Notes: a model not told the origin generated them from the letters alone. 43,981 nt of DNA from an uncultured Gammaproteobacteria bacterium (GCA_964350915.1 CAYGLM010000002.1:15728-59708); one strand, 5' to 3'; shown: positions 32,551-36,184, counted from the stretch's first letter. Program-made: numbers and translations.

Positions 32551-32579
32551 TTGACCCGAGGGTTAAATTTTGTTAAAAT
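32551..32579 (+). promoter_or_regulatory. Sigma70-type promoter of the nrdR-nrdD-nrdG operon (TTGACC-17-TAAAAT, with TG at -15/-14)
   Basis: ttgacc at 32551..32556, the 17-nt spacer cgagggttaaattttgt, and taaaat at 32574..32579. Confidence 0.55.
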
Positions 32580-32587
32580 AGGAATAC

Positions 32588-32636
32588 ATACAACATTTAG
32601 TGGCCAGGGCACTAAAAAGTCCACAAAATATGGTTT
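32588..32636 (+). promoter_or_regulatory. Two NrdR-box-like 16-mers immediately downstream of the -10 element
   Basis: atacaacatttagtgg (32588..32603) and ccacaaaatatggttt (32621..32636) each match about 12/16 positions of the published consensus acaCwAtATaTwGtgt as I recall it. They are offset by about 31-33 bp, roughly three helical turns. Confidence 0.5.
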
Positions 32637-32661: not shown

Positions 32662-33123
32662 ATGAAATGCCCAATTTGTTATTACCCCGATACTAAAGTT
32701 GTTGATTCCCGGGTAGCGACCGATGGATTATCTATCCGTCGTCGTCGAGAATGTTTGAAGTGTTCCTTCCGCTTTTCTACTTATGAAGAGATAGAATTAT
32801 TGGATTTAGTCATTGTTAAGCGCGATGGCCGTCGCGAGTCTTATAGTAGAGAAAAATTGGTCGGTGGATTAAAAAAATCTTGTGAAAAACGGCCGATTAC
32901 TGAGGATCGTTTCAAGCGCTTGATTCATGCGATTGAAAGAGACTTACAGCGCCTCAAAAAAACAGAAATAACCTCGAGCCAAATCGGACAGGCGGTGATG
33001 AGAAACCTAAAGAAGATTGATACGGTTGCCTATATTCGTTACGCTTCGGTTTACGAATCATTCAAAGACGCTCAAGAATTCCGTAAGGAGATTAACAAGC
33101 TCATCAAAGATAAAAATAAGTAA
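32662..33123 (+). CDS. nrdR: Transcriptional repressor NrdR (Zn ribbon plus ATP-cone)
   Basis: MKCPICYYPDTKVVDSRV...RRRRECLKCSFRFSTYE, then an ATP-cone (VIKRDGRRESYSREKL). 153 aa. Confidence 0.95.
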   Translation: MKCPICYYPDTKVVDSRVATDGLSIRRRRECLKCSFRFSTYEEIELLDLVIVKRDGRRESYSREKLVGGLKKSCEKRPITEDRFKRLIHAIERDLQRLKKTEITSSQIGQAVMRNLKKIDTVAYIRYASVYESFKDAQEFRKEINKLIKDKNK

Positions 33124-33136
33124 TTATCAAATCCCT

Positions 33137-35197
33137 ATGTCCGAGACCATCAGCAAAATCATCAAACGATCCGGCGATATCGTCGATTTCGATCAAGACA
33201 AAATTGTTCGCGCTATCCACAAAGCAGCCACAGCTGTTGATTTGGATGACAAACATTTAGCTAAAAAGTTGGCCGACCAGGTAGTGCTAAAAGTAAACCA
33301 TAAGTTTCATAAGAACAGCATTCCGGCGGTTGAAGAAATTCAGGATGTCGTTGAAGAGGTGCTGATTGAAAATGGTTATACGAAAATCGCCAAGTCCTAT
33401 ATTCTTTATCGCGAACAGCACAGACAGCTTCGTGATATTAACGACGCTACTGCTGATGAAAAATTAATGGAAGATTATTTGGGACGAGCTGACTGGCGCC
33501 TGAAAGAAAATAGTAACATGAGCTTTTCTGTTCAGGGTTTAAATAATTATATTGCCTCAGCTATTTCTGCCCGCTATTGGCTGAATAAGATGTATCCGGA
33601 AAATATTAGGAAGGCGCATATCGAGGGCGACATGCACATTCATGATTTAGGCTTGTTGGCTCCTTATTGTTGTGGTTGGGACTTGAAAGATTTATTAGTT
33701 AAAGGATTTAGAGGAGTAAGCGAAAAAGTCCAAAGCAACCCCCCTAAGCACTTTCGTAGCGCCTTAGGTCAGATTATTAATTTTTTCTATACTCTTCAGG
33801 GGGAAGCAGCTGGAGCCCAGGCTTTTGCTAATTTTGATACTTACCTCGCTCCTTTTATCCGTTATGATAAATTGACCTACGAAGAAGTAAAGCAGGGCTT
33901 GCAGGAGTTCATGTTTAATATCAACGTTCCGACTCGTGTTGGTTTTCAGACCCCCTTTACTAATGTGACTTTAGATGTAACGCCATCACCGATGATAGGC
34001 GAGGAAAATGTGATTATTGGCGGCAAATTGATGCCAGAAAAATATAAGGATTTTCAAAAAGAAATGGACATGTTTAATCAGGCTTTTGCCGAGGTGATGT
34101 TGGCCGGCGATTCAACTGGGCGCGTCTTTGGATTCCCGATACCAACTTACAATATTGATAAGGAATTCGATTGGGACAAGGAAAGCATGAAGTCAGCCTG
34201 GGAAATGACTGCTAAATATGGAATTCCTTACTTCTCAAATTTTGTTAATTCTGACATGAATCGCGATGACGCTCGCTCTATGTGCTGTCGCTTAAGATTG
34301 GATAATCGTGAGCTGCGCAAACGCGGTGGCGGCCTATTTGGCGCCAATCCCCTTACTGGTTCTATTGGCGTAGTTACTATTAATCTTGCTCGCCTAGGTT
34401 ACTTGTCGAAAAGCAAAGATGAATTTAAAGAAAGATTGCTCTCCTTGATGGAAACAGCTAAAGAAAGTTTAGAGATAAAGCGTAAAGTAGTGGAAAAATT
34501 TACCGAAGACCGACTTTATCCTTACTCCATGTTCTATCTAGAAAATATTAAAGCTAGATTTGGTGAATACTGGAAAAATCACTTCTCTACCATCGGTATT
34601 AATGGCATGAATGAAGCGATTATGAATTTGATGGGCAAAGATTTAACTAGCCCCGAGGGACAGGCTTTTGCTGGAGAAATTCTGGATTATATGCGAGAAA
34701 AGTTAATGGATTTTCAGAACGAGACTAATACCCTTTATAATTTAGAAGCTACGCCGGGCGAGGGTTGCACCTATCGCTTTGCTAAAAAAGACCAACAGCT
34801 TTATCCAGGAATAATTTGCGCCAATACCGAGGCCGTGAAGAATTTAGGAGCTGATCCTTATTATACTAACTCAAGTCATTTGCACGTTAATCATACCGAT
34901 GATATTTTTTCTGCCCTTGATCTTCAAGATAAGCTGCAAACTAAATATACTGGCGGCACCGTTTTACATGGTTATTTAGGAGAAAGAATGCCGACTGGCG
35001 AGTCAGCTAAGAAATTAGTTAAAAGAATAGTTGAGAATTATCGTCTCCCTTATTTCACTATCACCCCGACTTTCTCTATCTGTCCGAAACACGGTTATTT
35101 GTCCGGAGAACATAAATTTTGCCCGAAATGTGACGAAGAAATTGGCTACAAAGAAACAGTTGGAGAGATTCGTTCCGCTGATCAAAATCAAGTCTAG
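33137..35197 (+). CDS. nrdD: Anaerobic ribonucleoside-triphosphate reductase NrdD, large fragment (ATP-cone, barrel and Zn-ribbon) lacking the glycyl-radical motif
   Basis: The ATG at 33137 (MSETISKIIKRSGDIVDFDQDKI, ATP-cone) is preferred; the ORF-track start at 33017 overlaps nrdR. Motifs MCCRLRLD, YNLEATPGEG, and the Zn-ribbon ICPKHGY...FCPKCDEE. The ORF ends in TAG at 35195..35197 with no R(V/I)xGY motif. Confidence 0.85.
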   Translation: MSETISKIIKRSGDIVDFDQDKIVRAIHKAATAVDLDDKHLAKKLADQVVLKVNHKFHKNSIPAVEEIQDVVEEVLIENGYTKIAKSYILYREQHRQLRDINDATADEKLMEDYLGRADWRLKENSNMSFSVQGLNNYIASAISARYWLNKMYPENIRKAHIEGDMHIHDLGLLAPYCCGWDLKDLLVKGFRGVSEKVQSNPPKHFRSALGQIINFFYTLQGEAAGAQAFANFDTYLAPFIRYDKLTYEEVKQGLQEFMFNINVPTRVGFQTPFTNVTLDVTPSPMIGEENVIIGGKLMPEKYKDFQKEMDMFNQAFAEVMLAGDSTGRVFGFPIPTYNIDKEFDWDKESMKSAWEMTAKYGIPYFSNFVNSDMNRDDARSMCCRLRLDNRELRKRGGGLFGANPLTGSIGVVTINLARLGYLSKSKDEFKERLLSLMETAKESLEIKRKVVEKFTEDRLYPYSMFYLENIKARFGEYWKNHFSTIGINGMNEAIMNLMGKDLTSPEGQAFAGEILDYMREKLMDFQNETNTLYNLEATPGEGCTYRFAKKDQQLYPGIICANTEAVKNLGADPYYTNSSHLHVNHTDDIFSALDLQDKLQTKYTGGTVLHGYLGERMPTGESAKKLVKRIVENYRLPYFTITPTFSICPKHGYLSGEHKFCPKCDEEIGYKETVGEIRSADQNQV

Positions 35198-35287
35198 TCA
35201 GTTCTTGTCAATTTGTAATTTATCAATTTTTAATTTATAATTTAAATAATCGTTAAGCTTGTTTCGCTCTTAAAATAGCGTGACAAG

Positions 35288-35443
35288 ATGGCGCAAAAAT
35301 ATATGAGTCCCATGCAAACTCAAAGACAAGAATGTATCGTTTATAGCCGTGTTGTTGGCTGGCTAACTCCGGTTAAGAATTATAATCCTGGCAAAGCTTC
35401 GGAATATAAAGATAGAAAAACCTTCAAGGTGCAGGCTAATTAA
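35288..35443 (+). CDS. 51-codon ORF encoding the NrdD glycyl-radical C-terminal motif (not in the supplied ORF track)
   Basis: My translation is MAQKYMSPMQTQRQECIVYSRVVGWLTPVKNYNPGKASEYKDRKTFKVQAN*. It matches the class III RNR C-terminus pattern (V/I)YSR(V/I)xG(Y)..PV..WN.GK..E...R..F. It is in the same frame as nrdD but separated from it by in-frame stops (TAG, TAA x3, TAG). It has no clear Shine-Dalgarno. Confidence 0.7.
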   Translation: MAQKYMSPMQTQRQECIVYSRVVGWLTPVKNYNPGKASEYKDRKTFKVQAN

Positions 35444-35458
35444 TTAATAGAAAAAGCT

Positions 35459-36184
35459 ATGATTATCGGTGGTCTAGAGAAATTGTCTCTACTTGACTAC
35501 CCCGATCATCTAGCGGCTATTATCTTCACCCAAGGATGTAACTTTAGATGTCACTTTTGCTACAACCCCATGCTTGTCCTGCCCCGCAAGGGAGAGGATG
35601 AAAAAAATAAAAAAGAAAAAGGTTTTTCTCCACTTTCCTCCGAAGACCTTTTTCTTTTTTTACGGGAAAGATATGGTCGTTTAGACGGTGTAGTTATTAC
35701 TGGCGGCGAGCCAACTTTACATCTCGACCTGCCGGCTTTTATCAAAAAGATAAAGAAAATTGGATATGACGTTAAGCTGGATACTAACGGAACTAATCCT
35801 GAAATGTTGACAGAATTAATAGAAAAAAAGTTGATTGATTATATCGCCATGGACTTGAAGGCGCCCCTAGACAAGTATGCGGAGACAGTTGGCGTCAAGA
35901 CGAGCTGTAATAATCTCAAAAAAAGTGTTAAGATTATCTTAAAGAGTGGTTTGCCGCATGAATTTCGGACGACCGTTGTTCCTGGTTTACTAGAAAAAGA
36001 TGATTTTCAGAAAATGGGCGCATTAATCAAGGGAGCGGATAATTGGTATTTACAAGCTTTTAAATCTGATACGGAATTAGTTAATCCGGATTATCGCGGC
36101 CATAAAGCTTTTTCTAGTCGACAGATGAAGGAATTCGCTGTTTTAGGAGCAAAGGTTGCCGGAAAATGTGAAATTAGGGAATAG
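35459..36184 (+). CDS. nrdG: Anaerobic ribonucleotide reductase activating radical-SAM protein
   Basis: DYPDHLAAIIFTQGCNFRCHFCYNP (CxxxCxxC), VVITGGEPTLH; directly downstream of nrdD. Confidence 0.85.
   Translation: MIIGGLEKLSLLDYPDHLAAIIFTQGCNFRCHFCYNPMLVLPRKGEDEKNKKEKGFSPLSSEDLFLFLRERYGRLDGVVITGGEPTLHLDLPAFIKKIKKIGYDVKLDTNGTNPEMLTELIEKKLIDYIAMDLKAPLDKYAETVGVKTSCNNLKKSVKIILKSGLPHEFRTTVVPGLLEKDDFQKMGALIKGADNWYLQAFKSDTELVNPDYRGHKAFSSRQMKEFAVLGAKVAGKCEIRE

Follow-up and report, generated by a model that had tools for sequence, protein, structure and literature searches.

We find that a stretch of DNA from an uncultured Gammaproteobacteria bacterium (GCA_964350915.1, CAYGLM010000002.1:15728-59708; 43,981 nucleotides (nt), hereafter the window, with positions counted from its first letter) appears, with a probability that we put at about 85%, to encode a functional class III (anaerobic) ribonucleotide reductase as two genes and two proteins. 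Glycyl radical enzymes are thought to bear their radical on their own C-terminal domain. Here, the nrdD open reading frame (ORF; 33137..35197) encodes a large subunit of 686 amino acids (aa) with an ATP cone, a catalytic barrel, a Zn ribbon and a short variable tail but without a glycyl-radical loop, and the loop is encoded by a separate 46-aa peptide gene (35303..35443; MSPMQTQRQECIVYSRVVGWLTPVKNYNPGKASEYKDRKTFKVQAN). Directly after it, 15 nt downstream, lies the gene for the radical S-adenosylmethionine activase NrdG (35459..36184; NCBIfam TIGR02495 NrdG2, 213 bits). This reading builds on what we observe of the locus, namely its gene architecture, the conservation of that architecture, purifying selection on both pieces, a conserved start codon and a conserved promoter-like element.

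An initial annotation of this DNA had reported that the glycyl-radical motif is missing from the nrdD ORF and present on a separate small ORF, and both observations are borne out, as are all of the coordinates given for them. The nrdD ORF, which most plausibly starts at ATG 33137 (MSETISK...), ends at a TAG (35195..35197) that lies 21 codons past the last Zn-ribbon cysteines (CPKC, 35120..35131). The Zn-ribbon coding segment (CPKH-x9-CPKC, 35081..35131) is the final conserved element of the large subunit; it is followed by the variable C-terminal tail (DEEIGYKETVGEIRSADQNQV) with its TAG stop (35132..35197), by a non-coding spacer of 105 nt and 26% G+C (35198..35302), and by the peptide gene, in which ECIVYSRVVGW... 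starts at 35330 and the predicted radical glycine, G19 of the peptide, is encoded at 35357..35359 within RVVGW. Five in-frame stops (TAG, TAA, TAA, TAA, TAG) precede ATG 35288, and simple readthrough is excluded by these as well as by the relatives described below. The one correction concerns the start of the small ORF: it had been read as 51 codons from ATG 35288 to 35443, a span that includes ECIVYSRVVGWLTPVKNYNPGKASEYKDRKTF, whereas the homologous start is the second ATG, at 35303 (MSPMQTQRQEC...), which gives 46 codons and leaves ATG 35288 as an in-frame upstream alternative that would yield 51 aa. No second NrdD-like sequence is present in the 44-kb window, to which this search was limited, and the large subunit likewise carries no glycyl loop.

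Both pieces were aligned to NrdD profiles, a check set beforehand, and homology was found to stop and resume at adjacent positions. The large ORF accounts for positions 1-529 of the 562-position Pfam NRDD profile (PF13597) and the small ORF for positions 530-562; since the two jointly cover the profile, the split is clean and no part is missing. The large ORF scores far above the cut-offs of PF13597 (614 bits, cut-off 26.2), NF006126 (1041, cut-off 548) and TIGR02487 (522, cut-off 326), has a Pfam ATP-cone match, and aligns with residues 99-610 of T. maritima NrdD (4coi). A profile built from the small proteins aligns with residues 616-645 of the same enzyme (YMRIVGYLVPV...), at the expected place though with a marginal E = 0.036, and the peptide alone found zero matches among PDB sequences. 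Because the two alignments end at 610 and begin at 616, the break is located precisely at the boundary of Zn ribbon and buried glycyl-radical loop, and RVVGW of the peptide is the counterpart of RIVGY in T. maritima NrdD. The radical glycine is invariant in the peptide alignment (A2), and across 16 diverse relatives (alignment A3) so are the finger loop SMCCRLRLD, other catalytic-core residues, and C649, H652, H659, C662 and C665, for which Zn binding is predicted; a CC finger loop belongs to the T. maritima-like lineage (PMC9669993). A Pfam scan of the peptide returned NRDD only, the Gly_radical family of the pyruvate formate-lyase (PFL) type being absent. By family models, Zn ribbon, finger loop and nearby NrdG, the protein thus qualifies as an NrdD family member on every sequence criterion but one: R-V-x-G-(Y/W) is not found at the C-terminus of the same polypeptide and instead occurs, as RVVGW, on the separate 46-aa ORF.

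A comparison of the junction in related genomes, likewise set beforehand as a check, was based on 80 species-level relatives of the large subunit taken from a genome collection (NrdD identity 62-88%; loci are numbered with the prefix L). These comprise Falkowbacteria and other Patescibacteria of the candidate phyla radiation (CPR), CPR2, Saccharibacteria, Pacearchaeota and Aenigmatarchaeota (both DPANN archaea), and one Aminiphilus (Synergistota). Each locus was called split or fused by anchoring on the conserved C-terminal region with tblastn and then following the frame. Three relatives are fused (L068, L076 and L078), one is truncated by the end of its contig, and the remaining 76 are split at the same point, so that the architecture recurs in 76 of the 79 informative species-level relatives, a frequency that by sequence comparison is far beyond chance.

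When the window is added to these 76 relatives, 77 split loci can be compared. The large ORF ends with TAA in 56, TAG in 19 and TGA in 2; reassignment of a stop codon, which we had considered, was rejected, as all three codons end the large ORF across relatives. Gap lengths between the two ORFs span 1-757 nt (median 75 nt, below 130 nt in most relatives), and relative to the large ORF, 30 of the small ORFs are in frame 0, 29 in frame 1 and 18 in frame 2. Throughout this variation the small ORF begins with ATG in 77/77 loci, mostly 10 codons ahead of a conserved cysteine, with the N-terminal consensus MSPIQTQRQEC(I/E)VYSRVVG(W/Y); it is because of this ATG-to-cysteine register that the start in the window is placed at ATG 35303. 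The gene neighborhood is also maintained: in 73 of the 77 split loci nrdG is the next gene after the small ORF, and in most related loci nrdR lies upstream of nrdD. In L077, which lies on a 3.15-Mb contig of Aminiphilus sp., the order is large subunit, nrdG (230 aa) and small ORF, the last preceded by a Shine-Dalgarno sequence. As this is a GC-rich Synergistota genome from outside the CPR, the split system also occurs outside the candidate phyla.

Fused enzymes show where the break arose. Between the last Zn-ribbon cysteine and (C/T/S)EVYSR they carry a linker of 3-15 residues (for example CPHCGEECEVYSR, CPKCVVEQKCEVYSR and CPKCDEAAKRTGSASRTKCEVYSR), and this variation in length places the origin of the split in a length-tolerant linker; the linkers were read from partial C-terminal fragments of fused enzymes, obtained by searching with the C-terminus of L068, and do not serve for counting fused against split forms. 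In a neighbor-joining tree of large subunits, the fused L068 is nested among split forms. Its sequence keeps the start codon and N-terminal extension of the peptide in frame (...CDED-D-MSPQKLERQKC...), for which the simplest reading would be re-fusion by deletion. Such a re-fusion suggests that fused and split forms are functionally equivalent and interchangeable.

Selection was measured on both sides of the break. Over 35 ungapped core codons of the small ORF, taken from the 20 closest sequences, the proportion of synonymous sites that differ (pS) is 0.73 and that of nonsynonymous sites (pN) is 0.04, corresponding to a ratio of nonsynonymous to synonymous substitution rates (dN/dS) of ~0.014, with synonymous sites near saturation. 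The first seven codons of the peptide (MSPIQTQ), which are not in the ancestral enzyme, show a pN/pS of 0.053 and the large-subunit body one of 0.073, while the large-subunit tail past CPKCDEEI is under relaxed constraint (pN/pS 0.47). As the tail and the N-terminus of the peptide are both conserved as protein, both flanks of the break are translated, which is evidence against RNA or protein splicing, since either process must remove them. The conserved start codon together with purifying selection points to separate translation of the two proteins.

The tails of the two proteins vary among relatives. That of the large subunit ranges from 4 to 50 aa, and eight loci (L040, L041, L044, L045, L047, L048, L050 and L056) have long tails of 19-50 aa that end in ERD(L/I/M)I.A(I/M)(A/S)(GF/GL); this conserved motif of the subclade might be a docking element for the peptide, NrdG or the reductant. 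In L021-L028, L039, L058 and L073, many large-subunit tails end in CxxC or CC (CSTC, NPTCC, CEEC, IECC), and in L022, L023, L025, L045, L067, L072 and others the peptide ends in CC (NSCC, GPCC, RECC, DNCC). These terminal cysteine pairs, which the proteins of the window do not have, recall the C-terminal redox-shuttle cysteines of class I and II reductases.

Stand-alone peptides of this kind are common in protein databases. The 120 database proteins closest to the peptide are all stand-alone (120/120; 41-65 aa), and a search of 1.84 billion cluster representatives with the peptide profile gave 4143 matches at E<=1e-3; of the 410 that pass E<=1e-10, the top 150 all have called lengths of 47-115 aa and stand for no fewer than 150 different clusters at 50% identity. 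The 120 large subunits nearest to that of the window are mostly ~673-703 aa, lengths from which it follows that the large subunits of relatives also end at or just past the Zn ribbon. Both kinds of protein are thus already in public databases under automatic names: named peptide matches carry the pipeline label 'anaerobic ribonucleoside-triphosphate reductase' and named large subunits that of ribonucleoside triphosphate reductase, so the two pieces receive nearly the same name and family surveys could take the large piece as truncated. Three large subunits are longer than the usual ~685 aa (P0353, P0363 and P0379; 1004-1040 aa) and probably contain inteins; one of them carries the Pfam intein domain PF14890. 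Inteins therefore occur in this NrdD lineage beside the split.

The spacer between the two genes was examined for signals of its own. The initial annotation had drawn attention to an 8-bp inverted repeat bracketing the non-coding part (35203..35210 and 35281..35288). The repeat is present, but a functional meaning for it is not supported: its left arm pairs just as perfectly with 35325..35332, it is one of several 8-nt chance pairs, it is absent from the closest relatives, and it looks like chance. The spacer shows no significant fold (z = -1.24), and 27 of 200 shuffles fold equally well. Among relatives it has no conserved structure, and it contains no ORF or homing endonuclease gene; a scan of 34800..35700 against Rfam at E<=10 gave weak unrelated matches only and no intron or riboswitch. 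Elsewhere, spacers have gained repeats, with ~20-nt GC-rich tandem units filling the 411-nt gap of L053, CCCTAAT repeats in that of L056 and GTAGGCTT-like repeats in that of L048. Such tandem repeats in long gaps indicate that the spacer is plastic and the site apparently insertion-prone.

The spacer does contain an internal sigma-70-type promoter-like element, TTGTAA-N17-TATAAT (35213..35241, plus strand), found by consensus scan ahead of the peptide gene and nrdG and matching the sigma-70 consensus at 10/12 positions. TTGTA(A/T)-N17-TATAAT, always with a spacing of 17 nt, occurs in 21 of the 77 spacers compared to 0.43 expected in shuffles. Twenty of these 21 belong to the window and a close Falkowbacteria-like clade, in which only L010 and L014 are without the element, and across species the -10 hexamer ends 9-79 nt ahead of the ATG. 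In the window, an imperfect direct repeat with a spacing of 15 nt (TTGTCAATTTGTAATTTA / TTATCAATTTTTAATTTA, 35205..35237) overlaps the -35 region and spacer of the element.

Upstream of the reductase genes, and like nrdD, the peptide gene and nrdG on the plus strand, lies an intact nrdR with Zn ribbon and ATP cone (32662..33123; Pfam PF22811, PF03477). It is preceded by the promoter-like element of the nrdR-nrdD operon, TTGACC-N17-TAAAAT (32551..32579, plus strand; consensus scan), which has a TG ahead of the -10 hexamer and is kept in position and sequence in 14 close relatives. Two box-like elements (ACAACATTTAGTGG, 32590..32603, and CCACAAAATATGG, 32621..32633; starts 31 nt apart, together 32590..32634, plus strand) are near-invariant in an alignment of the nrdR upstream regions of these 14 relatives. 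They are probably divergent NrdR boxes, an identity suggested by likeness; the textbook NrdR-box consensus has no site near the operon at <=3 mismatches. The earlier argument that intact nrdR and nrdG speak against decay holds, and these two conserved elements can be set beside it. Unlike the operon promoter, the internal promoter-like element has no NrdR-box-like sequence behind it; given this and the conservation of the element, peptide and activase probably have a route of expression that is independent of NrdR control.

Genes for the peptide are also found on contigs of a viral catalogue. A search of this catalogue with the peptide profile gave 59 loci, of which the best 40 were examined (among them L081-L092, L094, L098-L102 and L119; the same contigs with ±10 kb flanks are L220-L257). 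In 39 of these 40, the peptide is a stand-alone ORF of 43-65 aa that is up to 88% identical to that of the window (for example MSPIQIQRQECIVYSRVVGWLTPVKNYNPGKAAEYKERKVFKQPE). Neither an NrdD large subunit nor NrdG lies within ±10 kb in any of the 39 (0/39; hidden Markov model for the large subunit, phmmer for NrdG), the contigs being mostly incomplete and read to ±10 kb (20 kb of the longer ones), and none is among the 80 best viral loci for the NrdD large subunit. One contig carries a terminase large subunit and others carry tail or tail-fiber proteins, so that the contigs look phage-like, membership of the catalogue being no proof of a virus. With a pN/pS of 0.27, the phage-borne peptides show purifying selection. 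These orphan genes may represent a new kind of phage auxiliary gene and, if upheld, imply that a resident large subunit can work with a peptide from another source. Eight more distant viral loci (L103, L105, L107, L108, L110, L116, L123 and L125) encode ORFs of 72-165 aa that combine a CxxC...CxxC ribbon-like segment with an (E/Q)V(Y/F)SR..G(Y/F) loop and have no NrdD barrel nearby; they resemble whole free-standing glycyl radical domains, in concept like GrcA.

Taken together, these findings are best explained by a two-gene enzyme, as in the first option of the initial annotation, a two-piece enzyme with a free glycyl-radical peptide; the conserved split and ATG, the dN/dS of ~0.014 and the nrdG context all support it. 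In such an enzyme, the allosteric ATP cone, the Zn ribbon and a barrel bearing the thiyl-radical finger loop would come from the large subunit; the radical glycine G19 and a C-terminal surface tail would come from the 46-aa peptide, translated from ATG 35303. NrdG, encoded next to it, would generate the glycyl radical on the peptide, whose glycine loop would, by homology, dock into the barrel beside the finger-loop cysteine, and the assembled complex would then operate like a normal NrdD. In this clade, the internal promoter-like element would drive the peptide gene and nrdG apart from the nrdR-controlled large subunit. A detachable, non-covalently held glycine loop is physically plausible, as cryo-EM and hydrogen-deuterium exchange of P. 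copri NrdD found the glycyl radical domain to be highly mobile, able to be fully disordered and to leave the barrel (PMC11226230).

Several points weigh against this reading. Translation, complex assembly, activation and exchange are all deduced from sequence. No Shine-Dalgarno sequence is visible ahead of ATG 35303. In several species the internal element would give a nearly leaderless mRNA, in keeping with the lack of Shine-Dalgarno sequences in those species. An AlphaFold2 model of the joined pieces was unusable (mean predicted local distance difference test score 48.5, predicted template modeling score 0.46), which we attribute to the shallow full-length alignment supplied; this held close large subunits, peptides and fused C-terminal fragments and no diverse full-length sequences. 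Docking is consequently argued from homology to solved fused enzymes only. Finally, neither a split NrdD nor a free glycyl-radical peptide of the NrdD type is described in the open-access full text that we searched, and an earlier description could exist.

How the two proteins work together, and why the split persists, can be read in more than one way. One refinement of the two-gene reading, plausible but short of even odds in our estimate, is that the peptide binds reversibly and is consumable: O2 cleavage at the radical glycine would then cost a 46-aa peptide only, and a fresh copy, from the internal promoter or from a phage, would re-arm the intact 686-aa subunit. In its full form, this would make the peptide a free exchangeable glycyl-radical cofactor that has its own promoter shared with the activase, is discarded on O2 cleavage, and is carried alone by phages to keep the host subunit armed, a picture that we hold tentatively. 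It is in line with the conserved internal promoter-like element that has no NrdR-box-like sequence behind it, with the 39 of 40 phage-catalogue contigs on which the peptide gene stands without a large subunit or NrdG within 10 kb, with the terminase and tail-fiber genes on such contigs, with the absence of these contigs from the 80 best viral large-subunit loci, with a pN/pS of 0.27 in the phage-borne peptides, and with the precedent of GrcA/YfiD for pyruvate formate-lyase (PMC8683613, PMC13450708). Many split loci, however, lack a separate promoter and have a gap of 1-20 nt only, which means that raised expression of the peptide is not a general feature; a large-subunit gene could lie farther away on the incomplete contigs, which were read to ±10 kb; and the split could be selectively neutral. 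This last possibility, in which an insertion in a variable linker gave a stop and a start and the two halves assemble tightly and persist by drift, is one that we consider possible but unlikely. The break does lie where fused relatives have linkers of differing length, the spacers are plastic and gain tandem repeats (L053, L056), the tree mixes fused with split forms, and working split reductases are known in NrdJa/NrdJb and phage Aeh1 NrdA (PMC9669993, PMC3653736). Drift sits less well with a split kept through deep divergence (to 62% identity, in bacteria and archaea) with fused forms in only 3 of 79, with the strong conservation of the novel N-terminal residues of the peptide, and with the conserved promoter-like element and the orphan copies on phage contigs.

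The other readings deny that there are two working proteins, and we give them very little weight. In a single sequence, a stop soon after the Zn ribbon followed by loss of homology mimics a fresh nonsense lesion, and a recent pseudogene had been among the options of the initial annotation. The same architecture in 76 independently assembled genomes, together with near-saturated synonymous change and minimal protein change in both pieces and with intact nrdR and nrdG, excludes a recent pseudogene and leaves sequencing or assembly error with a negligible chance. Restoration of one polypeptide by bypassing, frameshifting, readthrough, a small intron or protein trans-splicing is scarcely more credible. 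The two ORFs do share a frame in the window, and the group I intron of T4 nrdD is a precedent (PMC3653736). Across relatives, however, the small ORF occupies all three frames (30/29/18) after gaps of 1-757 nt, the gap of the window holds five stops, nrdG lies inside the gap in L077, and both flanks are conserved as protein. For translational bypassing, of which T4 gene 60 is the known example and which had been another of the options, these frames, gaps and flanks and the conserved ATG are incompatible with the proposal; the small RNA element that had also been suggested fails on the lack of any Rfam match or conserved spacer structure and on gaps down to 1 nt. A self-splicing intron of the T4 sunY type was rejected in the same way, the spacer being too short, unconserved and without meaningful Rfam overlap. 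A split intein would have to fit into flanks of 4-50 aa and ~10 aa, which are too short, and a Pfam scan found no intein domain there.

If the two-gene reading is true, glycyl radical enzymes can have their radical element on a subunit of its own; to our knowledge, proteins that bear such a radical and stand alone are otherwise limited to the GrcA-type spare parts of pyruvate formate-lyase. Installation of the radical by NrdG needs the domain to be out of the barrel and is structurally hard to capture, and the peptide would offer a natural minimal substrate for studying it. The arrangement would also hint at a cheap means by which small-genome anaerobes at oxic-anoxic interfaces survive oxygen damage, and at a new kind of phage auxiliary gene. 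Should the peptide moreover be exchangeable, it would be the first spare-part or diffusible radical subunit beyond the formate lyases, and no natural substrate of a glycyl-radical activase would be smaller.

Compared to canonical single-chain NrdD/NrdG systems (T. maritima 4COI/4U3E, P. copri 8P23 and phage T4 1H79), the system described here has the same ATP cone, barrel, CC finger loop, Zn ribbon and RVVG(Y/W) loop and likewise has nrdG adjacent, with nrdR and box-like elements upstream. It differs in that the large subunit ends 21 residues past the Zn ribbon and that the glycyl loop and C-terminal tail (T. maritima ~611-651) are on a separate 46-aa product. An interrupted nrdD coding sequence is in itself familiar, since phage nrdD genes are often interrupted by introns, as in the group I intron of T4 nrdD (sunY), or fragmented (PMC3653736); here there is no intron-like RNA, and the interruption would be resolved by assembly of proteins. 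Closer in this respect are the class II NrdJa/NrdJb of Pseudomonas aeruginosa and a Thermus phage and the NrdA-a/NrdA-b of phage Aeh1, functional reductases in which the catalytic subunit is encoded by two consecutive genes (PMC9669993, PMC3653736). As in a split reductase, the adjacent co-oriented genes of the window tile the full profile without overlap, the split is conserved, and both parts are under purifying selection. Those enzymes belong to other classes of reductase and are broken at another point, and the gap in Aeh1 holds a homing endonuclease gene whereas the 105-nt spacer here holds none; moreover, it is here the radical-bearing element itself that is isolated as a mini-protein.

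The free glycyl-radical proteins GrcA/YfiD and Y06I of phage T4 rescue pyruvate formate-lyase (PMC13450708, PMC8683613), and according to a 2026 review such spare-part proteins are known only for formate lyases. The peptide resembles them as a small free-standing homologue of a radical-bearing C-terminus that has phage-borne copies and presumably receives its radical from the cognate activase. GrcA is an additional copy, made for an enzyme that owns a glycyl domain, whereas the large subunit has none, in the window as in the 76 split relatives, so that the peptide would be an obligatory subunit; of the GrcA analogy drawn in the initial annotation, the free radical peptide stands and the spare-part role does not. 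The two also differ in extent, GrcA having 127 aa and a whole domain and the peptide 46 aa without even the Zn ribbon, and the peptide shows no sequence relationship to the PFL-type Gly_radical family. Judged by these comparisons, the system is a split reductase with a GrcA-like flavor rather than a member of the GrcA family.

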